Shown in pieces: positions 9,169 to 64,000 of a DNA stretch of 64,000 bases; position 1 is the stretch's first letter; each line of letters opens with the position of its first letter. The translations under genes and the position numbers were made by a program. The DNA is from an uncultured Gammaproteobacteria bacterium (GTDB lineage Bacteria > Patescibacteriota > Microgenomatia > UBA10105 > UBA927). A model generated the notes under the pieces. It did not search any database. It worked only from the letters and a program-made list of their open reading frames with translations, and was not told where the DNA came from. The stretch is taken from the NCBI GenBank assembly GCA_964629685.1, contig CAZVTT010000001.1, positions 641,319 to 705,318 of the forward strand, read 5' to 3'.

Positions 9169-11625
9169 TTAAATGCTTTTCTCCGGGTGGATTATTCCAT
9201 CCGGTGTGCGTTTCCCATATAGAGCGTCAAGCTCTTCCCCGGACAAGAGGTCATTTTCGGACTTGTTTAATACTTGTGCTGCCTGTTGAAGTAAATGCGC
9301 CCAGGATGATTTGTTTACATAGAGCATACCGTCGGCAGCCAGCGTTCCACCCTGGTTAATAAACCCAACGCCCCGAATCGTTTTACCGGAAAAATTATGC
9401 ATCATTGCCCCAATAAATAGTTCTGGCCTGGTATGTGTAACCATAATATAAGACTGTGTATCGTGATTAAAAATAGCATTTCTGGTTTCTTCCGGCGCGA
9501 GATGATGCGCTTCTCCTTCGTTTCTGGGTAAACGGAATCGACCCGGTTCCAGAATATATGCAACCCGGTGGGGAACGTCTTTTTCGGTTAATCGAACTGA
9601 AGCTTTCATAATCTCCATGAGTTGGTACGTACCCATGGCGATGAAACACAATTTGCTTTCAGACTGCTTATGGCCGAGCCAGGGAATTACCATTCCGCCA
9701 TTTGCTACGAGAGTCCGTGATTCATCCCGCGTAAACCAATGGGGAGTTATGCGCTTGGAAACGACAATAGTCCAAATTTGACCCTGTGTTTTAAATAGCT
9801 GCTCCATGACGGCTACCGAAACGTTATAGTCGGCCGGGAAAAACACCCGGGATATATCCGAAGTTTCGGCAAACATAGACTCCGCCATCGAAGAATCCTG
9901 ATGAGACAGTTCGTTCTTGCCGTTTTCCCAGCTGTGCGAAGTGAGTACTAGCGGGACCGATAACCATTTAGCAGGGCGGCCTTTTTCGGATTTGTGTTTG
10001 GAAAAAATAACTTCCTGTCGGGCTTCTCCGAATATTTTTGATCCGAATGCTTCATACGTCACAATAATATTTATTCCGCCTTTATTGCCGAACGCGGCAC
10101 CGGCAATAGCTTCTTCATTTAGTGCCGTTATTACTTTTCCGAAAACTGATTCGGATATCCCGCCTTCAGGATGAGTGACTCGGAATTTTAGTTCCTGCAG
10201 CGTTTCCGTCATCCTGTTGGATGTCATTTCATCTGGGTTTCCTACCCGTGGTCGAAGCTGCGGATTTGCTAATACGGTAGCTATATAGCTTCTATCTATT
10301 CCTTTTATCGGCGCAATATATTGTTCCTTAGGCTGGTGTAAACGGTCTTCGGATATCTCCAGATACTGTAATGCCGGTTCGTGTTCGATATGGACGTCAC
10401 GATTAGCGACCGGATTATCCCGTTCCCGTTGCCGTTTAGTATGCTCATGGTTATTTATGGTAGCGATAGCTTTCCGTAAATCCGCTTCCGGTACATATAA
10501 TTTTTTAGCATGCGTATTAAATCTATTGGCGGCAATATGATCCTGACTTGGATTCGTTACCAAAGGCAGATTGTGTGCAAAATTTGTGCCTTCATTATAA
10601 AAACCCGCACCTTTCGGGGCGACTGCTATACCGTACGGAATGGGCAGTTCGTATTTGTCTATGCTGTCTATTTCTTTGGCTTCATGTTTTAGCCGGCGTT
10701 CACTTTCAAATATTGCCCAGGCAAATGCTGCAGGGTCCCGTCCGTCAAAAACAAACGGATCAAAATTATGTAATTTAAGATAATTCACGAACCATTCCAC
10801 TCCACCTGACATAGACATCGTACTCCGTTGATCTATTCTTCTACCGTTTGCGATCATGATCGGTGTAATAAGTCCGCTATCTTCTTCTCTCCACCAACGC
10901 GGAGTCCAGTCGCTTCCGCGTTGTTCTTCAAATGCGCCATCACTTAAAAACGCTACGAGTCTCTCTCCCGGGAGCGGCATATGTGCATACTGTACTTCCG
11001 TAAATCCCAAGTAGCCGCTCTCCATGTGGCCGCCTGCTGTATTAGGGTTTACATGGCTTCCCAAAGGGGTATCCTGTTTTCCCTGCGCATTTAATATGCA
11101 GGAATAGAAGTCGCGGACATAACGGGTTAATCCTTCATCGGATAATGAATACCGTTCTTTATGGGCATCCGTCATGTTATCTAATAATAAGTTTACGCTA
11201 TCAATCGCAGCTACGGCATGTCCCTGACCGATAACCCATGCTCGGGTTTTTCCCATTATGGCATTCATTACCATATAGCCGACATAGCCGGGTATCATGT
11301 TTAGTGAAGCTCCCGTGTGGCCTTCAGGTTCTCGTTTAAAATCATCCGCAACAAGTACCCGACCGTCCAAATATACTTTTCGGGTATAGGTCATGTGTGC
11401 CACTAACCACATTCCGGCATTGGCTAATCTGTCGGCTGCGTGTAACAACGCGTAAGGATCTACATCAGGAGCCAAAAGGGAATTTTCCTTTAGATAAGGA
11501 ACCATTTCCTGAATCCGTGCTATTGTTTCCGGTTGGTGCTGAATGACACCGTATCCTTCTTTCCAGGAAATTTCAGAGGCAGTATCCATAGTATCTACTA
11601 TACTTTGCGTAGCGGGGAATAACAA
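9169..11625 (-). CDS. xfp: Xylulose-5-phosphate/fructose-6-phosphate phosphoketolase
   Basis: An 818-aa ORF. Its length and overall similarity match XFP-family phosphoketolases, which are thiamine-diphosphate-dependent. It lies directly downstream of ackA on the same strand. Confidence 0.85.
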   Translation of the reverse strand: MLFPATQSIVDTMDTASEISWKEGYGVIQHQPETIARIQEMVPYLKENSLLAPDVDPYALLHAADRLANAGMWLVAHMTYTRKVYLDGRVLVADDFKREPEGHTGASLNMIPGYVGYMVMNAIMGKTRAWVIGQGHAVAAIDSVNLLLDNMTDAHKERYSLSDEGLTRYVRDFYSCILNAQGKQDTPLGSHVNPNTAGGHMESGYLGFTEVQYAHMPLPGERLVAFLSDGAFEEQRGSDWTPRWWREEDSGLITPIMIANGRRIDQRSTMSMSGGVEWFVNYLKLHNFDPFVFDGRDPAAFAWAIFESERRLKHEAKEIDSIDKYELPIPYGIAVAPKGAGFYNEGTNFAHNLPLVTNPSQDHIAANRFNTHAKKLYVPEADLRKAIATINNHEHTKRQRERDNPVANRDVHIEHEPALQYLEISEDRLHQPKEQYIAPIKGIDRSYIATVLANPQLRPRVGNPDEMTSNRMTETLQELKFRVTHPEGGISESVFGKVITALNEEAIAGAAFGNKGGINIIVTYEAFGSKIFGEARQEVIFSKHKSEKGRPAKWLSVPLVLTSHSWENGKNELSHQDSSMAESMFAETSDISRVFFPADYNVSVAVMEQLFKTQGQIWTIVVSKRITPHWFTRDESRTLVANGGMVIPWLGHKQSESKLCFIAMGTYQLMEIMKASVRLTEKDVPHRVAYILEPGRFRLPRNEGEAHHLAPEETRNAIFNHDTQSYIMVTHTRPELFIGAMMHNFSGKTIRGVGFINQGGTLAADGMLYVNKSSWAHLLQQAAQVLNKSENDLLSGEELDALYGKRTPDGIIHPEKSI

Positions 11626-11651
11626 GATAAAAGGAAGAGTTAATAGGTGAT

Positions 11652-12869
11652 CTACCCTAAGTTAAGGTAATCACGGACGTATCTGAGAATGAGTTTTGAT
11701 TCGTCTACAGGTATAACCCACGCGTCTATGACGGAATCTGATTTGGTGATTTTTGCCGTTTTGCTCGTAGTTGCATTATTTAACCCGCGGTCCAGGTTTA
11801 TGCCGATATGGTTAAGTCCTTCCAACACTCTTTCCCGAATAAATGGGGCATGTTCTCCAATTCCGCCACCGAAAACTATGCCTTTGGGCTTTCGCAGGAC
11901 TGCTAAGTATGAACCGATATATTTAACTATGCGGTAAACAAACATGTCTATGGCCAGTCGGGCGACAGAATCTTTGTGATATGCGGCAATTAATGTTTTA
12001 GTATCACCATCTGTTCCGCTGACACCCGCGAGTCCCGACTCGGTATTTAATATTTTTTCCAGCTGCGGTACGGACATACCACTCGATCGGGCAATATGAA
12101 AAATAACACCGGGATCCATATCGCCGGCGCGGGTCCGCATCATGAGTCCTTCCATGGGAGTAAAACCCATGGACGTATCTATGGACACCCCATCCTGAAT
12201 TGCGCATACGGAAGCCCCGCTACCCAACTGGAGCGTGATGATACTACTTAGGTTTCTGGGCGTTCTGGTAAGTTCCGCAAAACGTTCCAGCATATATTCG
12301 TGTGCTAAGCCATGAAAACCAAATCGTGTAATACCGAATGTCTGGGACATCTGTCGCGGAATGGCATACGTTGATGCATAGAGGGGTATTGTCCGGTGAA
12401 AATTAGTATCGAATACACCAATACAGGGAATTGTGTTACCTGTGTGTTTTTTTATTGTCCGAATGACCTTGATTGCCGGTTTATTATGTAAGTGCGCTAA
12501 TGCTGCGAGTCGTTCTAGGCTTACTAACGTATCTTCTGTAATGGTAGTTGGTTTGGTTATTTTTTTCCCGCCGTGTACTATCCTGATTCCAAACGCGTTT
12601 ACCCATTTTTCAAATGGTAGATGTGGATTCAGAAGCGCTATATATTCCAGTGCGGAAATGACTGCTGTTTCTAAATTAGATATATCCTGTTTGACGGTAT
12701 CAACATTTATAGTTTGGGAAGAGAAGATGAAGCGGGGATTTAGTCCTATATGGTCAATACTACCTGTTGCTATTTTTTTGCCACGGTTAATTGAGACGTC
12801 ATACACATCAAATTTTAATGTGGAGCTTCCACTGTTAAACGTGACAATATGACCGGGCAGGGTATCCAT
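11652..12869 (-). CDS. ackA: Acetate kinase
   Basis: The N-terminus IVTFNSGSSTLKF matches the acetate/propionate kinase phosphate-1 motif. At 405 aa it is co-directional with xfp. Confidence 0.85.
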   Translation of the reverse strand: MDTLPGHIVTFNSGSSTLKFDVYDVSINRGKKIATGSIDHIGLNPRFIFSSQTINVDTVKQDISNLETAVISALEYIALLNPHLPFEKWVNAFGIRIVHGGKKITKPTTITEDTLVSLERLAALAHLHNKPAIKVIRTIKKHTGNTIPCIGVFDTNFHRTIPLYASTYAIPRQMSQTFGITRFGFHGLAHEYMLERFAELTRTPRNLSSIITLQLGSGASVCAIQDGVSIDTSMGFTPMEGLMMRTRAGDMDPGVIFHIARSSGMSVPQLEKILNTESGLAGVSGTDGDTKTLIAAYHKDSVARLAIDMFVYRIVKYIGSYLAVLRKPKGIVFGGGIGEHAPFIRERVLEGLNHIGINLDRGLNNATTSKTAKITKSDSVIDAWVIPVDESKLILRYVRDYLNLG

Positions 12870-35200: not shown

Positions 35201-35703
35201 ACTAATTTTTGTTTAAGTTTATACGAATATGCGTGCGTTAGGGCTATTGCTACGGCGTCTGCTACGTCATCCGGTTTGGGAGCAGTTGCTAAATGCAGAA
35301 TCCGTGCGATCATTTTTTGAACCTGTATTTTATCTGCCCTACCGTCGCCGCATATAGTACGTTTTACTACGAGAGGACTATATGATACCACGGGGAGATT
35401 CTGTTCCGCAGCGGTTAACAGTACGACACCGCGAGCCTGAGCAACGGGAATAATCGTTTTAGCGTTATTGGAAAAAAATATTTCTTCGACGCCTACGACT
35501 TGTGGTTGGTATTGCCTAATAAGATCAGTTAATTCCGTATGAATTGCGAGTAGTCGGATTTCCGGTTTATCCGTCGCTTCCGTCGTTATGAGACCAAAAG
35601 CTTCCGGTAACGGTTTCCCCGTTAGATCATTCAGTATAGCCCAACCGACTCTGGCGGTACCGGGGTCTACTCCTAAAATACGCATGGCATCATAGTACGT
35701 CAT
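35197..35703 (-). CDS. ruvC: Crossover junction endodeoxyribonuclease RuvC
   Basis: The N-terminus MRILGVDPGTARVGWAIL is the RuvC catalytic-Asp motif. Confidence 0.9.
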   Translation of the reverse strand: MTYYDAMRILGVDPGTARVGWAILNDLTGKPLPEAFGLITTEATDKPEIRLLAIHTELTDLIRQYQPQVVGVEEIFFSNNAKTIIPVAQARGVVLLTAAEQNLPVVSYSPLVVKRTICGDGRADKIQVQKMIARILHLATAPKPDDVADAVAIALTHAYSYKLKQKLV

Positions 35704-35764
35704 CGGCGATATTCATTCAACGCATGAGCAGCGAGTTATAAAACTTTGTATACTTAGAAAACAG

Positions 35765-36142
35765 ATGAAATTTATAATCACATTACTATGCGCGGGATTG
35801 TTTATGGCTTTGGCTAGTCTGCTCTGGCCGCGTTTCAGCGATCAACCTAGGCCCGCGGCGTTAAATCAAATCCGCGATATGGTAATGCGTACTCCTTTGG
35901 GATTCCAGACGGCTACAGTATTGGGTGTTTCGGACGAATCGAATCTGCAACGGTTTAATATGCAGTCCACAATGGGGGATTTAACCGCCAGTGCGGCATC
36001 GGCAGTGCAACAGCGGGCACAAACTATTTTAACTATTCAGGCTGTTAAGCAACTCTCGCAGCAGTTTAAACAATTACCTCCGGATCAGCAGGAACAAATT
36101 AAACAAATCATTTGCCAGCCGGAAGCGATACCGGAGCCCTAA
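35765..36142 (+). CDS. Hypothetical secreted protein
   Basis: A signal peptide followed by a Gln-rich sequence. No domain was recognised. Confidence 0.4.
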   Translation: MKFIITLLCAGLFMALASLLWPRFSDQPRPAALNQIRDMVMRTPLGFQTATVLGVSDESNLQRFNMQSTMGDLTASAASAVQQRAQTILTIQAVKQLSQQFKQLPPDQQEQIKQIICQPEAIPEP

Positions 36143-36145
36143 CCG

Positions 36146-37381
36146 TTACCATCCTAACACTTTACCGACTCCTCCCAGAATTGCACCGAAGGTGATTACT
36201 ATTCCCGAACCAACTAAGAGTACATTTTGCAGTTTGGTATTTTTGTGCACACCCATAAGCTCTTCATTATTGGCAAGTTTGTACAGAAAGAAGAAAATTA
36301 CCGGAAGCATTATGCCATTAAAGTAGTCTGCAATAAGCGTGATGGTGAACAGCTGGAGGTTGGGTAGCATAATAACGACGGTTCCCAGTAAAATTTGTCC
36401 CACAAAAAGCATATAAAATAGTCGGCTTTTTTTGAACGATTCGTCTAAACTTCCTGCGAATCCAAAGAACTCCGAAAAAGCATATGCCGTAGAAAGCGGA
36501 ACAATAGACAACCCCAGAAATCCGGCAATTAACAGTCCCAGTCCGAATAAGGTCCCCGCCATTTGTCCGGCAAACGGTGAAATTGCGCGGGCAGCATCTG
36601 CAGCGTCATGAATGGTTAAGTGGTTAGCAAAAATGGTAGCGGCAACCGCAACCATCATGAAAAGTGAAAAAACATTTGTAAGAATGGCGCCGGTAAATAT
36701 TTCCCAGCGGGAATACTTTAGCTTATCTACCGTAATATTTTTATCTTTTATATAACTGTTTATGAAGAATTGTCCCCAGGCGGTTACGGTGGTTCCCAAT
36801 ACGGCAATAGACGTATACAGATAGTCAAATGTAATCGGACCGGTCGGCATCACAATGGATTTAGCCGCCAGTCCCCAGTCCGGTTTGGCTAGTACGGCAG
36901 AAATAAAATACATAATATAAAATCCGATGAGCAGTAAAAAAAAGCGTTCTATTTTGGAATAGGTAGACATGGTAATGAAGATAAAAAGGGCAATAAGCGT
37001 AATGGGAAGGAAAATCCGGAAATCCAATCCGAATAATGCCAGACCGGCCTGCAGTCCGCCAATATTCTGTAATATGACACCGAAGTTTATAAGAAATAAC
37101 AGAACGAACGTTGCGATAGTAACCCGAATACCGAACCGTTCACGAATCAGATCTGCCAGACCTTTCCCGGTAACTATTGCTATTCTGGCGCCAATTTCCT
37201 GCGTTACCATAAGTACAACCGTGATGGGGATCATCGTGGTGAGTATGCTATAGCCGAATTTTGCAGCCGCGCTGGAATAGGTAGCGACGCCACCTGCATC
37301 GTTATCCGCAAACGCGGTTATTAAGCCCGGTCCGATAACCGCCAGTAATAACACTAGTTGTCGCCAAAATCGTTTAAACAT
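36146..37381 (-). CDS. NRAMP (SLC11) family transporter with non-canonical metal-site motifs, possibly an NRMT-type Mg2+ transporter
   Basis: It has the NRAMP fold (GPGLITAF...GGVATYSSAAAKFGY) and 11-12 TM helices. By manual alignment the TM1 DPGN is replaced by ADNDAGG and the TM6 MPH by TAW, a Met-to-Thr change. Confidence 0.75.
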   Translation of the reverse strand: MFKRFWRQLVLLLAVIGPGLITAFADNDAGGVATYSSAAAKFGYSILTTMIPITVVLMVTQEIGARIAIVTGKGLADLIRERFGIRVTIATFVLLFLINFGVILQNIGGLQAGLALFGLDFRIFLPITLIALFIFITMSTYSKIERFFLLLIGFYIMYFISAVLAKPDWGLAAKSIVMPTGPITFDYLYTSIAVLGTTVTAWGQFFINSYIKDKNITVDKLKYSRWEIFTGAILTNVFSLFMMVAVAATIFANHLTIHDAADAARAISPFAGQMAGTLFGLGLLIAGFLGLSIVPLSTAYAFSEFFGFAGSLDESFKKSRLFYMLFVGQILLGTVVIMLPNLQLFTITLIADYFNGIMLPVIFFFLYKLANNEELMGVHKNTKLQNVLLVGSGIVITFGAILGGVGKVLGW

Positions 37382-37383
37382 AG

Positions 37384-38595
37384 TTAAGATAAATGTTGTA
37401 CCACAGATTCGGTTAAGTCATCCCACGTTACTACACCCAGAATTTGTTTGTGTTCATCTATTATGGGTAATGCCATAAGTTTATATTTAAGCATTTTTTT
37501 AATGGCAATTTCTTCCGGTGTAGACAGATAGGCTACGATCAGATTCTGTCCCATAAATCTGTATGCGGGGGTGTCGGTATTCTGTACTAACAATTCGTGC
37601 AGATTAAATGCTCCGACTAACTGTTGCTGATTGTTGATGACATATACATAGCGTAGGGTAGAAAAATCACTTGACTGTGAACGGACGATGGATACTATTT
37701 TACTGACGGTATCTTCCGGTTTAACCGTAAGATACTCCGAGGTAATAAGTTCACCTATTTCTGTTTTGGATAGTTTTTCCAAATGTTCAATTTCTTTTTG
37801 CTTTTCATGAGGAAGCAAAGAAATAATATCTTTGCGCTTATCCTCAGGCAGCGTCAGTAAAATATCTACGGCATCATCCGGATCTATTAACGCCAGAATT
37901 TCCGCTGCGCGCTGGGGTTTAAAGTGTTTAAATAACGATTGTTGATAGGTTAAATTTAAATTTTGTACTACTTCAGCTTCAAAATCTTCATCCAACAAAT
38001 CCAAAATCCGGGAAATGTTTTTTACGTTCATTTTTTCCAAATGGTCTGCCAGATCTTCCGGACGGATTCTTTCCAGCTTATCTTCTTCTTTGTTTAGTAC
38101 TACTTTTCCGGTTGCCAGTTCCAGCGGTTGTATATCCGCCCAGGAAAGGAAACGGGACGTGAGTGTTCTGCCCAGGCGGGAAAAAATCAGGTTTACCACT
38201 TTTTCTATTTTTAGCCATCGGAGTAACCCCAGTAACCCGATATCTACTCCGGCGATTAAAAAATTAGGTTTATCCTGAATGGCAACGTCGTTTACCCGAA
38301 CTACTTTATTACCGTTAATATCAATTATTTGTTGATTTAATAAGTTTTTCTTAATGAAAAGTTCATTCTCGGATAAGGTTACACTCTGAAAATCTGCAAT
38401 AAGTTCAATATGAGAGTTTATTTTTTTTATTTGCGAAGCGGGGATGAGAAGGTCGTGGTGTTTATCTGTTCGGATGACAATTTTAGTAACAAGTGGCTGG
38501 TCCTGTGCCCGGAAAATCAGGTCTTTAAGTCGACCTATAGCTTTTTTTTCAGACGTGATAACGGTTTTTCCGTCCAGTTCGGCAAAGTACAGCAT
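37384..38595 (-). CDS. Stand-alone MgtE-type cytosolic domain protein (PRC-barrel-like N-terminus, MgtE-N domain, CBS pair) with no TM domain
   Basis: The MgtE N-terminal domain region is present (DLADHLEKMNVKNISRILDLLDEDFEAEV...). A C-terminal CBS pair follows (LPIIDEHKQILGVVTWDDL). There is no hydrophobic segment. A 3-nt gap separates it from the NRAMP gene. Confidence 0.7.
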   Translation of the reverse strand: MLYFAELDGKTVITSEKKAIGRLKDLIFRAQDQPLVTKIVIRTDKHHDLLIPASQIKKINSHIELIADFQSVTLSENELFIKKNLLNQQIIDINGNKVVRVNDVAIQDKPNFLIAGVDIGLLGLLRWLKIEKVVNLIFSRLGRTLTSRFLSWADIQPLELATGKVVLNKEEDKLERIRPEDLADHLEKMNVKNISRILDLLDEDFEAEVVQNLNLTYQQSLFKHFKPQRAAEILALIDPDDAVDILLTLPEDKRKDIISLLPHEKQKEIEHLEKLSKTEIGELITSEYLTVKPEDTVSKIVSIVRSQSSDFSTLRYVYVINNQQQLVGAFNLHELLVQNTDTPAYRFMGQNLIVAYLSTPEEIAIKKMLKYKLMALPIIDEHKQILGVVTWDDLTESVVQHLS

Positions 38596-38652
38596 CTATA
38601 AATTCACGCCACTGCATGGCGTTCCTCCCGAAAATATACACCTACAATAGTA

Positions 38653-41121
38653 TTATACAGCTATTTCGGTTCCGCGATGTATCTCACCTTTTAGTACTTT
38701 TTCGGCAATGGTATTTTCGACGTATTCCTGAAATGCTCTTCGGAGTGCTCTGCCTCCATATTCCGCGTTAAAACCCGCTTCCAGCAACTTATGTCTGGTA
38801 GTTTCGGAAAGGGTAACGGTAATACCGTGCCGTTCTTTTACGGTTTTGTTGTATTGCCGTAACGATAGGTCGAGTATTTGTGCGGTATGATCGGTCGATA
38901 GAGGGTGGAATACGATGACATCATCGAATCTGTTTAGTAATTCCGGTGATAAAATTCCGGCACGCTGTACATGTTCAACTATTAGCTGTGTCAAATTAGG
39001 AGGGGGAAGGGTATTGCTTATCAACTCTCTGATTTTTTCTGAACCTGCGTTACTGGTAGCGATAATAATGGTATTGGTTAAGTAGACGTTTTTTCCGAAG
39101 GCATCGGTAATATATCCTTCATCAAATGCGGTAAGGAATATATTATGTATTTCCTTATCCGCTTTTTCAAATTCGTCCAGCAGCACGATACAGGCGGGAT
39201 GATCATGAAGCCGTTCGGTAAAAATGCCGACTTTTCCCGATGCAAAGTCCCCGATTAATTGTTTTGTAGCTTCACCGGTATTAAACTGCGCCATATCGAA
39301 TCGTTGGAGTGCCGTTTCCTTTCCGAAATATGCATAGGACAGGGCTTTAGCTGTTTCCGTTTTTCCTACGCCTGTCGGACCAAGGAACAAAAAACAACCA
39401 ATCGGTCTGTTTGATTGTGTGTCTGCATTTGCCCTCGCCCGGCGTAACGCTTTGGCTATAGCCGTGATAGCTTCTTCCTGGCCTACCACCCTGTCATGCA
39501 AGTGAGATTCCAGGTGAAGCAAAACATTTTTATCCGAACGTTCGAGTGCAAGAGGAATTCCCAGTTTGCTTGCTGCCAGCGTTCTGACATCCGCTACAGA
39601 AAGCACTTTAGCCGTTTGTCCGATTTCTGCTGCGGCAGCAATATCGTCCAGCAGAACCAGCGCTTTCTCGGGAAACGGTGCGTCATGCATATACCGATCG
39701 GCAATTTGTACTATTTCCTTCACTGCCTGAAACTGGAACCATAGCCTGTTATGTTCTACAGTGACCAATTGATCCAACAGTACTGGTAATGTTTGATCTG
39801 CCGTGAGTGATTCCACGGTAACTATTTCAAAGAGTTCGCAAAGTGTCAGATTGGGTTTAATAAACCGATGGTATGCTTCAGGTGTTACCATCGCGATAAT
39901 TTGTAGCGTTCCGTCTGAAATGTTGTGTACCACGACATCGCTAAAGTCTATCCGATCCGGACCGGAAGAAATAAAGCGGTCAAATTCATCGAGTACCAGA
40001 ATAATATTCCCGGCACCCGAAGCTTCCTGTAATATTGCCGACAACAAAGCTTTTTGGCTGGTGGCGTCTGTTTCCCCGTTGTAGAGTTGTTCCAATTTTA
40101 CATATAACAATCGTTTCCCTTCCAACTGTGGTAACACCCTGCCGGCAGCAATTTCATGGGCAAGATAAATAAGGAGCGGGTGTTTCCCGACGCCGCTTTC
40201 TCCAACCAGTAAAACGCTGTTTACCGTACGTTTGGATATGCACTGGTCTATTTGGGTTATTTCTTTTTTTCGTGCACGGTAACTGTCATTTTTAAGGGGT
40301 TCCAACGCCAGATCACTGGTTACGTTATCCAGTGTCGGTGTATAACCGTAAGTCCAATTTTTACCGATTGAAGGTAACCGCAGTAGCCTTTCCCGGTTCC
40401 AGAATTGGTGCTCGTATGCATACTGCTCGTTTAATCTGTCGTACCAGGCGCACATGTCTCTTACGTCGTTATCCGTAACTCCCAGCTCGAATAAATATTG
40501 TTGTAATGTGGTGTTTCTTTGGTAAAGCAAGAGAAAAAGTGCGGATATTTTGTGTTCTTTACCGATTAATTCACCGGGAATATGCACTTCCATGGTTTTA
40601 TCGGTAGCGGATAAAAAAGCGGTCCGTGAAAGAGACAGTCTACTGAGGAAAAATTTACCGAAATGCGTGTCTATTAGCCTGGTTAACATCGTATGAACAT
40701 CGGGATCCCGTATAAGTCTGCGCAGCTCCCTATTATCCGTATCTGCAATATAAAATAACAGCGATAATCCCGGTGTAATAAGCCAAAGACATACGACGAG
40801 TAAGCCTGCTAAGGAGGTTACGATAATACAAAGTATTCCCGCGACAATGACGCAGCTTCGGACTATGAAGCCGATAATCCGCGAAATGATATTAAAACTT
40901 ACCCGTTCACCGATTTCGTCAACGGATATTCCCGGTTTTCGTTTTTTTCTGATAGCGCGTTTCCAGGGGGCAAAAAGTGTTTTTGCCAGCAGCGGGAGTG
41001 AAAAAAAATGGTAAAAAAATACCAGAAAATTGGCGAGTATTTCCCGTAATGATTTCAGTCCGGACCCGTAGTGCCACACCAGATATCGGATGGGCGCGGG
41101 GCGGCTATCTGCGACGACCAT
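38653..41121 (-). CDS. Membrane-anchored ClpA/ClpB-family double-AAA+ ATPase with a degenerate D1 Walker A
   Basis: There are 3-4 N-terminal TM helices. D1 carries GESGVGKH (His in place of Ser/Thr) and Walker B ILVLDEFD. D2 has the canonical GPTGVGKTETAKALS and VLLDEFEKA. A ClpB D2-small C-terminal region is present. Confidence 0.7.
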   Translation of the reverse strand: MVVADSRPAPIRYLVWHYGSGLKSLREILANFLVFFYHFFSLPLLAKTLFAPWKRAIRKKRKPGISVDEIGERVSFNIISRIIGFIVRSCVIVAGILCIIVTSLAGLLVVCLWLITPGLSLLFYIADTDNRELRRLIRDPDVHTMLTRLIDTHFGKFFLSRLSLSRTAFLSATDKTMEVHIPGELIGKEHKISALFLLLYQRNTTLQQYLFELGVTDNDVRDMCAWYDRLNEQYAYEHQFWNRERLLRLPSIGKNWTYGYTPTLDNVTSDLALEPLKNDSYRARKKEITQIDQCISKRTVNSVLLVGESGVGKHPLLIYLAHEIAAGRVLPQLEGKRLLYVKLEQLYNGETDATSQKALLSAILQEASGAGNIILVLDEFDRFISSGPDRIDFSDVVVHNISDGTLQIIAMVTPEAYHRFIKPNLTLCELFEIVTVESLTADQTLPVLLDQLVTVEHNRLWFQFQAVKEIVQIADRYMHDAPFPEKALVLLDDIAAAAEIGQTAKVLSVADVRTLAASKLGIPLALERSDKNVLLHLESHLHDRVVGQEEAITAIAKALRRARANADTQSNRPIGCFLFLGPTGVGKTETAKALSYAYFGKETALQRFDMAQFNTGEATKQLIGDFASGKVGIFTERLHDHPACIVLLDEFEKADKEIHNIFLTAFDEGYITDAFGKNVYLTNTIIIATSNAGSEKIRELISNTLPPPNLTQLIVEHVQRAGILSPELLNRFDDVIVFHPLSTDHTAQILDLSLRQYNKTVKERHGITVTLSETTRHKLLEAGFNAEYGGRALRRAFQEYVENTIAEKVLKGEIHRGTEIAV

Positions 41122-41230
41122 AGTTTAAGTGTAGTCTGTCCGTTTACGAGAGTAAACGATATATATCACCGAAACGACCTGGCGCGCTCCAATGCTGTGT
41201 TCTCTCTTAGCCCGTGGTACAATTATATAT

Positions 41231-42241
41231 ATGGACGAGGATTTAAAACAGCGGGCTACAGACGTATTGCAAAAATTGAATTTAGACGGGAAACGCCAAT
41301 CTATCCGTGAACTGGAGGCGGAATCGTTTAAAGAAGGGTTTTGGAGTGACCCCCAACAAGCAGCCAAAAAAATGAAACGTATGTCCCAACTGCAAAAGGA
41401 ACTGGAAGAGGGAGAGATGTTGGAATTGTTAATCAGCGACGGAAACGGGCCGGAATTGGAACAGATGGTAGATAAACTGGAATTTGCTCTATTTCTGTCC
41501 GGTCCTTATGACAGCGGAGATGCAATTCTTGCCATCCATGCCGGTCAGGGTGGCACCGAAGCAATGGATTGGACTTCAATGCTTAACCGGATGTATGCCC
41601 GCTATATCGAGCGGAAAGGGTGGGACATGGAAGAAGTAGATTTTACTCCCGGGGAAGAAGCAGGGATAAAAAGCGTAACTATGGCCGTAAATGGTCCGTA
41701 TGCGTTCGGATTTTTAAAAGCGGAAGTGGGAGTCCACAGGTTAGTACGTCAGTCTCCGTTTAATGCGGATAACCTCAGACAAACATCGTTTGCCATGGTG
41801 GAAGTACTTCCTGTGGTTGACGATAATGCACAAATCGACGTGAAGGAAGAGGATTTGGAATGGGATTTTTATCGCAGCGGAGGTAAAGGCGGCCAGAACG
41901 TAAATAAGGTTGCGACTGCGGTTCGGTTACGGCACAAACCTACCGGAATAATTGTAGCCAGTCAGGCGCAACGTTATCAGGGGCAGAACCGGGAATATGC
42001 CCTTAAAGTACTGCGGGCAAAACTTTGGGAACGGCAGGAACAGGAGCGGTTAAGTAAAGAACGGAGTATGCGGGGTGAATACAAAACACCCGGCTGGGGA
42101 AATCAAATACGATCATATGTATTGCATCCGTACCATATGGTGAAAGATTTACGGACGGAACATGAAACCGGTCAAACTGAACGGGTACTGGATGGGGATA
42201 TAGAAGATTTTATTGTCGCGTACTTGAAAAAAATTGCCTGA
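41231..42241 (+). CDS. prfB: Peptide chain release factor 2
   Basis: The GGQ motif ([12 protein letters not shown]) and the RF2-specific SPF tripeptide (RQSPFNAD) are present. The ORF is contiguous, so no programmed +1 frameshift site is needed. Confidence 0.9.
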
Positions 42242-60846: not shown

Positions 60847-61791
60847 ATGAAACAGATACAGAAATTACTCGAGAGTGATAGCAATAAATTCCTGCTGCGG
60901 TTGGGGATATTTGCCGCGCTATTTATTCTGGTAACCGGATTAGTGGGGCCGTGGGTGGTATACAGCAAGCTCCTGTATGGATTCCATTTTTTTATATACG
61001 GGAACATGGGGAAGCTGGTGTTATTCTCCGTAATCGTGTTTTTACTTCTTACTAGAGGAAAACTGCAGGACATTAAACTGGAAAAATATCAGAAGGTAAA
61101 TGTACTCTTTATCCTGGCATCGTTTGCATTAATACCGGTATTCTTCCGGCTGGGGAGTATATTGTTACAACAGTCATCGTTTACGGCCAATCTCCCGTTA
61201 AGCGTGCTAACCCATGTCACGTTACTCCTTATTACGATACTGCTGGTTCCCGGAGTATTCGGAATCAAATTCGTAAAGTATTTCCTGTCGGAGTTTAAAA
61301 AAGAAATAGGTGTATGCCTTGGATTATCTATCGGATTTTATTTCGCCATATTCAAAGTGTGGAATCTGTGGCCGTATTTAAGTGATATGGTGCTCGCAGC
61401 GGTAAAATGGTTGTTTTCACTTACATTTCCCATAGTGCGTACGGGCGTAAACAGACGCATCCTGGTACAGGATTTTGCCGTAACCATAGATCAGGCCTGT
61501 TCCGGAATAGAATCTATATTCTTATTTTCTTCACTGTATTTGTTAATTGCACTATTGGATTGGAAGAAGTTAAATAAAACCAAATTATTCCTGTTATTCT
61601 TCCCGGCTTTGGCGGGATTATTTTTGGTCAACATACTACGGGTATACATCTTAATTCTGATTGGAGTAGTAATTTCACCGCAGTTGGCATTACAACTCTT
61701 CCACACCTATGCCGGCCTGGTGCTATTTGTAGTTTATTTTTTCTTGTTTTGGAAAGTGTTCTATAAAAATTTAATAATTAGAAAAATTTGA
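60847..61791 (+). CDS. Exosortase/archaeosortase family transmembrane transpeptidase
   Basis: A 314-aa protein with about 7-8 TM helices. A conserved Cys motif is present (AVTIDQACSGIESIF). An Asn/Arg motif sits in a later helix (LVNILRVYIL). Both resemble exosortase-family hallmarks. Confidence 0.6.
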   Translation: MKQIQKLLESDSNKFLLRLGIFAALFILVTGLVGPWVVYSKLLYGFHFFIYGNMGKLVLFSVIVFLLLTRGKLQDIKLEKYQKVNVLFILASFALIPVFFRLGSILLQQSSFTANLPLSVLTHVTLLLITILLVPGVFGIKFVKYFLSEFKKEIGVCLGLSIGFYFAIFKVWNLWPYLSDMVLAAVKWLFSLTFPIVRTGVNRRILVQDFAVTIDQACSGIESIFLFSSLYLLIALLDWKKLNKTKLFLLFFPALAGLFLVNILRVYILILIGVVISPQLALQLFHTYAGLVLFVVYFFLFWKVFYKNLIIRKI

Positions 61792-61821
61792 TAATTGTGT
61801 ATATTGGAAAATGTTTCTAGT

Positions 61822-63087
61822 ATGAAGCTATCTAAGGTACTATCGTTTGGAAAGAAGCAAATTCTTTTATTTAAGAATGATGTTCTCTACAGAAATGCAT
61901 TGTGGTTAATGCTCGGTACAGTCGTAATGTCTGGAGTTGGTTTTGTCTTTTGGGTTATTGCTGCCAGGCTTTACAAACCTGAAACAATTGGCTTGTTCAT
62001 TACATATGTATCGTCGTTAATACTCTTGTCGAACTTTTCGTTGTTGGGATTTAATACAACTATTAATCGGTATTTATCTAATTCAAAAAATAAACAGAAT
62101 TTCATTAATACTACATTATTCGTATCGGCATCTGCGTCTTTTTTTATTGGATTAATATATGTATTAGGGATCAAAGTATGGGCAGATAAAATAAGTTTTG
62201 TTAAATCAGACATCTTATCTCTACTTATATTCCTTTCGTATGTCGCTATTAATACTATTAATTTAATTACGACTAATATTTTCATAGCAATGAGAGATGC
62301 AAAATTCGTATTTTTGCTGAATTCATCCCAGAGTATTGTTAAATTATTGCTGCTTATTTTATTATTTTCGCTCGGCCTTTATGGATTAATTGGTTCTTAC
62401 TACATTGCTACATTGGTAACTGTAATTATTGGATTTTTCGTTATCTACTCGAAATATAAAGTTAGAATACTATTCACTATAGATTCTGTGGTTATAAAGC
62501 AAGTGTTTAGATATTCGTTTATAAACTATGTTGTTAGTTTTGTTGGGGCGTTTCCTGAGTATATATTGCCAATCCTTGTAACAAGTAAAATTTCACCTGA
62601 AACAACTGCATTCTTTTATATGCCGAATATGATAGTAAGTTTTCTATCTGTGATACCTTCATCTGTTGCTAAATCATATTTTTCTGAAAGTTCACATGCA
62701 AATAAACCAGTTTCCTTGAAACGGCCTATGGCTCTAAGCTATTGTATTCTGGTTCCAATTGTCACAGTGTTTTTTTTGTTTGGTGAGTATATTCTTCGGA
62801 TTTTCGGAAAATCATACGCGCAGTCCGGATATATATATTTAGTTCTTATTCTTATCGGAGCTCTTGTATCCGTTCCTGGATACTTTTTGGGATTTAGACT
62901 TCTAGTAAAACATAGCATGCGAAAGTTAGCATTATTTACAGTAATCGGAGCATTGACTAACTTAATTCTTTACGTCTGGCTAGTAAATTATGGAATTGTA
63001 GGAATTGGTTTAGCTATAGTATTTGGTTATATTCAAGGTTCTACTCTGTATACTCTCGACTACTTGTTCAATAGCGATAGAGGATAA
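61822..63087 (+). CDS. Polysaccharide biosynthesis protein / Wzx-type flippase (MOP superfamily)
   Basis: A 12-TM protein with a Wzx-like N-terminus (MKLSKVLSFGKKQILLFKNDVLYRNALWLMLGTV). The region is AT-rich. Confidence 0.7.
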   Translation: MKLSKVLSFGKKQILLFKNDVLYRNALWLMLGTVVMSGVGFVFWVIAARLYKPETIGLFITYVSSLILLSNFSLLGFNTTINRYLSNSKNKQNFINTTLFVSASASFFIGLIYVLGIKVWADKISFVKSDILSLLIFLSYVAINTINLITTNIFIAMRDAKFVFLLNSSQSIVKLLLLILLFSLGLYGLIGSYYIATLVTVIIGFFVIYSKYKVRILFTIDSVVIKQVFRYSFINYVVSFVGAFPEYILPILVTSKISPETTAFFYMPNMIVSFLSVIPSSVAKSYFSESSHANKPVSLKRPMALSYCILVPIVTVFFLFGEYILRIFGKSYAQSGYIYLVLILIGALVSVPGYFLGFRLLVKHSMRKLALFTVIGALTNLILYVWLVNYGIVGIGLAIVFGYIQGSTLYTLDYLFNSDRG

Positions 63088-63092
63088 TCTTT

Positions 63093-64000
63093 ATGAAAGT
63101 CTGTATTATTAATGGTATATATGCTCAAACGAATGATGGAATAGGAAGATATTCCAAAAATCTAAAATTGAGTCTTCTTAGCGGTAAAAATGTTAATATT
63201 ATTGAAGTACCAAATCAGAAACAGGTAATCTTAAAAGCTGGTAAAGTTGTGGGAATAGGTAAATATATACCTAGCAACATAAAGCGTATTACTAACAATA
63301 TTCTCCTTGAAAAAAACTACCTCAATCGTTTTATTAATAATAGATATCACTTATGCGAACAAGTAAAAGAAATTCAGGCAGATATTTACCATGCTATTTC
63401 ACCTTCGGAAGCACCTGCTGCAGTACTTACAGGAAAAAAACCATTTGTAACCACGGTACACGATATAATTCCACTTATTAATCCTCCTAGGTTTTTACTA
63501 GAGAAGTTTTATTTTAACGAATATATGAAGATGGCATTAAAATCAAACATGATAATTTCAGATTCCAAGTCTACAAGAAATGATTTGATATCATTTTTAC
63601 CTGTAGATCAATCAAAAATCGCTATTGTATATCCAAGTATTGAAGAGACATACATCCCTTTGAAAGAAAAAAGGCCAAATAAATTTTTTACTTTTATATT
63701 TGTTGGCGGATTAACAAAACGAAAAGGAATATATGAAACGGTAAAAGCATTTAGAGAATTGTACAACATAAATCAGAATATACGGTTGCGAATTATAGGA
63801 GAGGGTGAAGAGGTTCATAATATCGTTAGACTTATTAATCGGATGGGAATAGAAAATAGTGTAAGTGTGGAAGGGTTTCTAAGCGAAAATGCGTTGATAA
63901 AGGCGTACCAAGAATCAGACGCACTTGTATATCCCTCAAAGTATGAAGGTTTCGGATATACACCATTGGAAGCAATGTCATGTGGATTACCAGTAATAAC
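63093..64000 (+). CDS. Glycosyltransferase family 1 (GT4-like), 5' part; continues beyond the window
   Basis: An agagga RBS is present. The frame is open to the window end. The C-terminal GT-B motif EGFGYTPLEAMSCGLPVI is present. Confidence 0.7.
   Translation, partial: MKVCIINGIYAQTNDGIGRYSKNLKLSLLSGKNVNIIEVPNQKQVILKAGKVVGIGKYIPSNIKRITNNILLEKNYLNRFINNRYHLCEQVKEIQADIYHAISPSEAPAAVLTGKKPFVTTVHDIIPLINPPRFLLEKFYFNEYMKMALKSNMIISDSKSTRNDLISFLPVDQSKIAIVYPSIEETYIPLKEKRPNKFFTFIFVGGLTKRKGIYETVKAFRELYNINQNIRLRIIGEGEEVHNIVRLINRMGIENSVSVEGFLSENALIKAYQESDALVYPSKYEGFGYTPLEAMSCGLPVI

Follow-up and report, generated by a model that had tools for sequence, protein, structure and literature searches.

A stand-alone PRC-barrel, MgtE_N, and CBS protein is encoded directly upstream of an NRMT-type transporter in a Patescibacteria genome and at most related loci

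Introduction

NRAMP-related Mg2+ transporters (NRMTs), an outgroup clade of SLC11, constitute a fourth class of bacterial Mg2+ importer. Here, we analyze a two-gene unit, comprising an NRMT-type transporter gene and the gene directly upstream of it (the partner gene), in the genome of an uncultured member of the Patescibacteria (GenBank assembly GCA_964629685.1, contig CAZVTT010000001.1, positions 641,319 to 705,318 of the forward strand). This whole 64-kb stretch is referred to below as the window. All coordinates are window positions, and both genes of the pair lie on the minus strand.

The family was named NrmT by Shin et al. in 2014 (PMC4072509), who reported that most nrmT genes sit after a gene for the cytoplasmic domain of MgtE. 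These workers proposed that the associated protein exerts feedback regulation from the cytoplasm, and they also raised a chaperone role. The operons that they described in C. acetobutylicum (Ca_c0685/Ca_c3329) and A. capsulatum (Acp2976-Acp2977) have the same two-gene order as the pair in the window, which lacks an M-box, as in A. capsulatum, and which belongs to a Patescibacteria host. More recently, Ramanadane et al. 2022 (PMC8806188) presented structures of an NRMT from Eggerthella lenta, EleNRMT (7QIA/7QIC), and defined the NRMT binding-site signature as DxxG-TxxA/T, replacing DxxN and A/CxxM. The new, functionally critical ligand in EleNRMT is T224, the Thr that replaces Ala; a Q379A mutation strongly compromises transport, and the protein transports Mn2+ as well. 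An initial annotation of the window, made from the sequence alone, had taken the pairing of transporter and partner to be undescribed, a point on which Shin et al. clearly hold precedence. Our literature search found no later paper on the partner, and in the library searched there was none containing both "PRC-barrel" and "MgtE". The PRC-barrel region described below is not mentioned in the available sections of Shin et al.

Results

The two genes of the pair are immediately adjacent, and the identity of both proteins, as well as their linkage, is secure. The transporter gene (36146..37381, minus strand) encodes a 411-residue member of the SLC11/NRAMP family. The partner gene (37384..38595, minus strand) encodes a soluble 403-residue protein made up of a PRC-barrel, an MgtE_N domain, and a CBS pair, that is, an NrmT-associated MgtE-like cytoplasmic module without a membrane domain. 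Both open reading frames (ORFs) had been placed correctly in the initial annotation; the gap between them, given there as 3 nt, is in fact 2 nt. At the junction (37382..37386, minus strand), the TAA of the partner gene is followed by a 2-nt spacer and then by the transporter ATG at 37381. No separate Shine-Dalgarno sequence for the transporter was seen at the junction when the sequence was inspected, which suggests that the transporter is translationally coupled to the partner gene.

The transporter matches Pfam PF01566 (Nramp, LeuT fold) with an E value of 3.2e-76 and 257 bits, over profile positions 1 to 356 of 357. When it was searched with HMMER against all PDB sequences, its nearest solved relative was EleNRMT (7QIA; E value of 1.9e-78 over residues 7 to 400), all other SLC11/NRAMP-family chains scoring at 4e-18 or weaker. 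The protein is 36% identical to EleNRMT and ca. 23% identical to DraNramp, and with the NCBIfam MntH model, whose cut-off is 430 bits, it reaches just 90.

A manual alignment in the initial annotation had read ADNDAGG in transmembrane segment 1 (TM1) and TVTAWGQ in TM6, and HMMER alignments to 7QIA and DraNramp bear this out; intact DPGN and MPH motifs are not present. In TM1, the sequence N27-D28-A29-G30-G31 is identical to that of EleNRMT, and its binding-site motif D28-A-G-G31 (DxxG; 37289..37300, minus strand) takes the place of the DPGN found in DraNramp and other classical NRAMPs. In TM6, G196-T197-T-V-T200-A201-W202 is aligned with G-T-T-I-A-P-W in EleNRMT and with G-A-T-V-M-P-H in DraNramp, such that the motif T197-T-V-T200-A201-W202 (TxxT; 36776..36793, minus strand) occupies the position of A-x-x-M-P-H in classical NRAMPs. 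Five residues are therefore changed relative to the classical site (Asn to Gly, Ala to Thr, Met to Thr, Pro to Ala, and His to Trp), and in the alignment no soft sulphur ligand is left. T197 corresponds to the critical T224 of EleNRMT, and the first His position of TM6b, the proton-pathway histidine, is W202, like W229 in EleNRMT. The motif residues in TM1 and TM6 are invariant or nearly so across 120 close homologues (122 sequences in the comparison of the TM1 motif) and therefore do not represent sequencing noise.

The transporter thus classifies as a protein of the NRMT type, carrying the published signature in its Thr variant, with EleNRMT as by far the closest solved relative. The Met-to-Thr change had previously been put forward as the hallmark of NRMTs; Thr is indeed an allowed variant at this position, but the signature is A or T, and EleNRMT has Ala. 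The two proteins share clade and fold, the TM1 sequence, and, in TM6, a Thr in place of the classical Ala and a Trp in place of the His. They differ at the Met position (Ala there, Thr here) and at the TM6 Pro, which is Ala in the window protein. Moreover, Gln379 of EleNRMT (Gln378 in DraNramp) is aligned with Asp352 in TM10 of the transporter (36326..36328, minus strand), and Glu133 in TM3 of EleNRMT is aligned with Asn106. The conserved TM10 Gln, which is functionally important but lies outside the published NRMT signature, is therefore missing here.

With respect to the partner, Pfam detects a PRC-barrel (E value of 1e-08), MgtE_N (6.9e-20), and CBS (6.2e-14, in two stretches). The PRC-barrel domain spans residues 2 to 64 (38404..38592, minus strand; PF05239, scoring 35.5 bits where the cut-off is 21.2) and is modeled with a predicted local distance difference test score (pLDDT) of ca. 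90 or higher. It is followed by a second beta-rich segment at residues 78 to 157 (38125..38364, minus strand) which, taken together with residues 1 to 65, resembles CdpB-type PRC-barrel proteins. We considered whether these two segments represent an internal PRC1/PRC2 duplication and rejected this idea, as hhalign gave a probability of 1% and Pfam, run on the second segment alone, gave an E value of 0.044. The N-terminal ca. 160 residues are better described by their fold match to archaeal CdpB (PDB 8QZO), i.e., as a CdpB-like PRC-barrel region. The resemblance is one of fold alone (15% identity), and CdpB acts in cell division, unlinked to metal transport.

The remainder of the partner corresponds to the cytosolic part of MgtE, with both its N domain and its CBS pair present. 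The MgtE_N domain (residues 178 to 273; 37777..38064, minus strand) holds D240 and D244, while the CBS pair (residues 281 to 398; 37402..37755, minus strand) holds D393, K372, and L373. Pfam gives no match to the five-helix MgtE pore domain (PF01769) in the partner, and the C terminus falls at the position of MgtE residue ca. 257 (partner residue 396 being aligned with MgtE D250). Since PF01769 is unmatched, the protein ends at this point, and only 2 nt lie between it and the next gene, we conclude from these comparisons that the partner is not an MgtE channel; the earlier description of the upstream gene as the soluble MgtE module only is upheld. Compared with T. thermophilus MgtE (2YVX/2YVY), then, the partner has the N domain and CBS pair, lacks the plug helix and pore, and carries the extra N-terminal PRC-barrel region of ca. 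160 residues.

To compare the ligand sites, the Mg2+-site residues of T. thermophilus MgtE, whose roles in the cytosolic domain were taken from PMC5882242, were mapped onto the partner and onto three sets of homologues. Both carboxylates of Mg4 are retained (MgtE D91 is partner D240, and MgtE D247 is partner D393), as is that of Mg6 (MgtE D95, partner D244), and these three residues are kept in 83 to 99% of partners, in close and distant sets alike. Mg7 is mostly retained as well; MgtE E59 is partner E208, and the position is usually acidic in homologues. In contrast, D226 of Mg5 is Lys372 in the partner and is not conserved, and the plug-helix sites Mg2 and Mg3 (E258 and D259) are missing, the partner stopping at that point. 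Among the ATP-site residues of MgtE (Y170, R187, D188, N203, and F227; PMC5529423), only Y170 is retained (as Y316), the others being H333, E334, G349, and L373, respectively; Leu predominates at the ATP-stacking F227 position throughout the partner family. Of the Mg2+/ATP sensing initially suggested for the module, the Mg2+ part is therefore plausible, given that the Mg4 and Mg6 residues are kept, while ATP sensing is not supported by these residues, with Phe227 replaced by Leu and with Asn203 and Arg187 unconserved.

How general is this gene pair? We scanned one genome per GTDB species with an alignment of NRMTs, which yielded 80 loci (42 to 70% transporter identity) belonging to Patescibacteria, Chloroflexota, Eisenbacteria, and further groups, and then ran domain hidden Markov models built from the partner on all of their ORFs. 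The initial annotation had called for such a co-occurrence survey, and its outcome is clear-cut: the partner lies directly upstream, on the same strand, at 75 of the 80 loci (95% of the 79 that could be assessed). All four partner domain segments are present at 69 of these 75 paired loci, those at the other six being split or at contig ends, and at 26 of the 75, the partner and transporter ORFs have 4 nt in common. The partner architecture of ca. 400 residues is common to hundreds of homologues, and close homologues of the pair carry the names Roizmanbacteria, Gottesmanbacteria, and Levybacteria, by which the window is assigned to Patescibacteria/Microgenomates. The flanking genes vary between loci (a ClpB-like gene lies within 4 kb at 9 of the 80, and other window neighbors at 1 of the 80). 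We therefore rejected a conserved wider operon and regard the pair itself as the conserved unit. The lineage of EleNRMT shares this arrangement; in a Paraeggerthella relative that is 91% identical to EleNRMT, a 450-residue PRC-MgtE_N-CBS gene is situated 4 nt upstream. The pairing, including the PRC region, is therefore a feature of NRMTs in general.

The same survey brought to light a correlation within the transporter. All loci with another residue in place of the TM6 Pro (Ala, Leu, or Ile and, in one case, Gly) have Asp, Asn, or Ser in place of the TM10 Gln, and loci that keep the TM6 Pro (T-x-x-T-P-W) also keep the TM10 Gln. The window transporter carries the replaced pair, A201 on TM6 and D352 on TM10, and these Ala and Asp substitutions mark its Microgenomates subclade. 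We found no mention of this co-variation in those parts of the NRMT literature that were available to us. A charge swap between the TM3 Glu and the TM10 Asp was considered and rejected, as TM3 varies among N, D, and E without a clean pattern. Separately, one of the surveyed loci (L069) contains a second divergent Nramp-family gene (5653..7047 of that locus, minus strand), convergent to a partner-less NRMT gene; its product has DPSG in TM1 and T-T-I-S-P-Y in TM6 and is 27% identical to the window transporter.

The partner was also searched against 1.84 billion cluster representatives, and the best 150 were examined. Nineteen of these, of 593 to 749 residues, have the PRC-MgtE_N-CBS module followed by four to six predicted TM segments (P0402, P0409, P0416, P0420, and P0488 are among them). 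Pfam detects an MgtE pore in P0402 and P0420, and three more resemble the C terminus of P0420. The fused forms align end to end with the partner module at 26 to 31% identity and keep the Mg4 and Mg6 carboxylates. They constitute a PRC-bearing, full-length MgtE-like subfamily (ca. 595 to 750 residues) related to the stand-alone partner, with the same module and with C-terminal TM segments that the partner lacks. Fusions between partner and NRMT were not seen among 360 listed homologues or the best 150 representatives; what the long forms carry instead is an MgtE-type membrane domain, and natural fusion to an NRMT was dropped as a line of evidence for interaction.

Upstream of the partner gene is an intergenic leader of just 57 nt (38596..38652, minus strand), which contains no riboswitch. 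Rfam gave no match at gathering thresholds across the window and none at an E value of 5 or below in 35600..41600; at 15 related loci, neither an M-box nor any other riboswitch was matched. With no riboswitch found and so short a leader, control of the pair is more likely to be post-translational. Upstream blocks of ca. 50 nt with ca. 90% identity are shared between loci, and we considered a hidden conserved leader RNA; this was rejected, since tRNA genes lie there. At the 13 loci checked, which represent a subset of Patescibacteria genomes, tRNA-Ile(GAT) and tRNA-Val(TAC) genes are found just upstream of the partner, both of them at L018, L042, L043, L046, L052, L055, L059, L061, L063, L064, and L070 and tRNA-Ile alone at L054 and L065. 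A 16S rRNA gene is located just downstream of the module at L018, L053, and L056. The 64-kb window itself contains no tRNA gene. Also present in the leader region is a 22-codon, out-of-frame upstream ORF (38551..38616, minus strand, with its ATG at 38616; MQWREFIDAVLCRTGRKNRYHV) which has a well-spaced GGAGG Shine-Dalgarno sequence and overlaps the partner ATG; the partner ATG itself is without an obvious Shine-Dalgarno sequence.

The genes surrounding the pair are housekeeping genes (ruvABC, prfB, ftsEX, and one for a ClpB-like ATPase), and neither CorA nor a full-length MgtE was found among the ca. 45 window ORFs scanned. The nearest neighbor, 57 nt upstream of the partner gene, encodes an 822-residue ClpB/ClpA-like AAA+ protein (38653..41121, minus strand). 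Pfam assigns no domain to its first ca. 270 residues, which include long hydrophobic stretches, and the protein may be a membrane-anchored Clp-type ATPase. Elsewhere in the window, a 2,159-residue protein (2156..8635, plus strand) combines SpvB, TcdB_toxin_midN, FG-GAP, many RHS repeats, PA14, and two F5/8-type-C domains, the RHS shell architecture of Tc-toxin or teneurin-like proteins, here encoded by a Patescibacteria genome of small size; its gene is preceded by a 459-residue ORF with an RHS repeat (445..1824, plus strand). At 9169..12869 (minus strand), a divergent phosphoketolase-like gene (XFP domains, 818 residues) adjoins an acetate kinase gene, an adjacency that suggests a phosphoketolase/acetate kinase ATP-yielding route. 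Toward the end of the window (60847..64000), the last 2 kb have a G+C content of 0.316, versus 0.40 to 0.48 elsewhere. This is the end of a cell envelope glycan cluster with an exosortase EpsH-like gene and a Polysacc_synt flippase, together with a glycosyltransferase, an epimerase, and a C-methyltransferase, and the low-G+C stretch may have been acquired horizontally.

Discussion

As judged from its sequence, the locus is an unremarkable, well-conserved example of a gene pair that has been known since 2014. It adds a binding-site variant specific to a subclade, along with anatomical details of the partner that have apparently not been discussed before. Same-strand adjacency at 95% of assessable loci across phyla, combined with frequent 4-nt overlaps, is typical of genes for subunits of one complex. 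The module is joined to an MgtE-type membrane domain in some proteins and stands alone beside an NRMT in others; it thus does operate alongside a transport domain, which fits a regulatory role.

We favor, with a probability of roughly 55%, a feedback model in which a Mg2+ sensor in the cytosol holds back an uncoupled Mg2+/Mn2+ uniporter. The transporter would be a LeuT-fold NRMT with an enlarged, all-oxygen site (Asp28, Gly31, Thr197, and Thr200, with Asp352 on TM10) and, by analogy with EleNRMT, would take up Mg2+, and probably Mn2+, uncoupled from protons. Being driven by the membrane potential, such a uniporter would need a feedback brake. In the partner, a CdpB-like PRC region would be flexibly linked to the MgtE N domain and CBS pair, which keep the acidic residues that in MgtE bridge the N and CBS domains via Mg2+ (Mg4 and Mg6). 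At high cytosolic Mg2+, the sensor would compact into its Mg2+-bound form and restrain the transporter from the cytoplasmic side; at low Mg2+, it would release it. This compaction of N domain and CBS pair would hinge on sites Mg4 and Mg6, with the PRC region docking the sensor to the transporter. We infer the physical contact, the direction of regulation, the docking role of the PRC region, and Mg2+ as the physiological substrate.

Several observations weigh against this feedback model. When Shin et al. (PMC4072509) co-expressed Acp2976 of A. capsulatum with Acp2977 in B. subtilis, rescue was unchanged. The A. capsulatum transporter, whose gene has no riboswitch, was mainly a Mn2+ importer, rescuing a Mn2+-uptake mutant fully and a Mg2+-uptake mutant weakly, and for these workers, Mg2+ specificity was best indicated by the riboswitch. 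The upstream M-box, which marks the Mg2+-specific subset of the family and is not required for membership in it, is absent from the window locus. The Asp that replaces the TM10 Gln could give the transporter a selectivity different from that of EleNRMT. The partner, for its part, cannot work exactly like the MgtE sensor, to judge by the unconserved Mg5 and ATP-site residues and the absent plug helix. Finally, of the five surveyed loci without a detected partner, one could not be assessed, and the other four (of 79) lack a partner within 4 kb.

The alternative that survives best, although we consider it unlikely, is that the transporter is a physiological importer of Mn2+ (or of divalent metals in general) and that the partner senses Mn2+ or some other signal. 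The partner-associated, riboswitch-less NrmT of A. capsulatum behaved mainly as a Mn2+ importer (PMC4072509), EleNRMT also carries Mn2+ (PMC8806188), the window locus likewise has no M-box, and the binding site departs from that of EleNRMT at the Met position (Thr for Ala), the TM6 Pro (Ala), and the TM10 Gln (Asp). However, the full DxxG-TxxT signature is present with no soft sulphur ligand remaining, the partner retains the Mg2+-bridging carboxylates of MgtE, and the extra carboxylate on TM10 would be expected to favor hard cations.

A second and less probable explanation holds that the partner does not gate the transporter at all and is co-expressed with it for some other purpose, e.g., to chaperone or buffer metal or to signal, as a CBS/PRC protein, to other targets. 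This would account for the lack of any effect of co-expression in the A. capsulatum experiment, and it is in line with the chaperone role raised by Shin et al. (PMC4072509) and with the four loci that have a transporter and no partner nearby. It is harder to reconcile with the near-constant same-strand adjacency and frequent 4-nt overlaps, or with the covalent fusion of the same module to MgtE-type pores elsewhere.

We find next to no room for the idea that a frameshift or deletion in a full-length mgtE gene left the upstream ORF behind: the end of the partner does coincide with the point at which plug helix and pore would follow in MgtE, but the transporter ATG follows 2 nt after the stop codon, leaving no space for pore remnants, and the architecture of ca. 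400 residues recurs in hundreds of homologues and is complete at 69 of the 80 loci. We likewise reject, as exceedingly improbable, a classical proton-coupled MntH/NRAMP importer of Mn2+ or Fe2+, which the Pfam Nramp match and the public annotation of homologues as "divalent metal cation transporter" might suggest, in light of the missing DPGN and MPH motifs, the MntH score of 90 versus 430 bits, and the low identity to DraNramp.

Returning to the feedback model, one more far-reaching version of it, which we advance only tentatively, is that PRC-MgtE_N-CBS is a portable Mg2+-sensing gating subunit that serves two unrelated membrane folds, acting in cis on MgtE-type pores and in trans on the LeuT-fold NRMT, with the PRC region as docking adaptor. 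As part of the same tentative proposal, the NRMT site found in Microgenomates (TxxT-A-W with a TM10 Asp) would change ion affinity or selectivity relative to EleNRMT.

EleNRMT, the NRMT that has been studied in vitro, is not proton coupled. An MgtE-like partner has been the obvious candidate for a brake on uptake of this kind since 2014, and the sole test, of one co-expressed pair, was without effect on rescue. Our analysis introduces no new concept in this regard; it shows that the pair is nearly universal among relatives in the Patescibacteria and Chloroflexota and is present in the lineage from which the NRMT structure came. Taken together, the ubiquity of the pair, the PRC region, and the fused forms render the design of a direct test of gating in trans straightforward.

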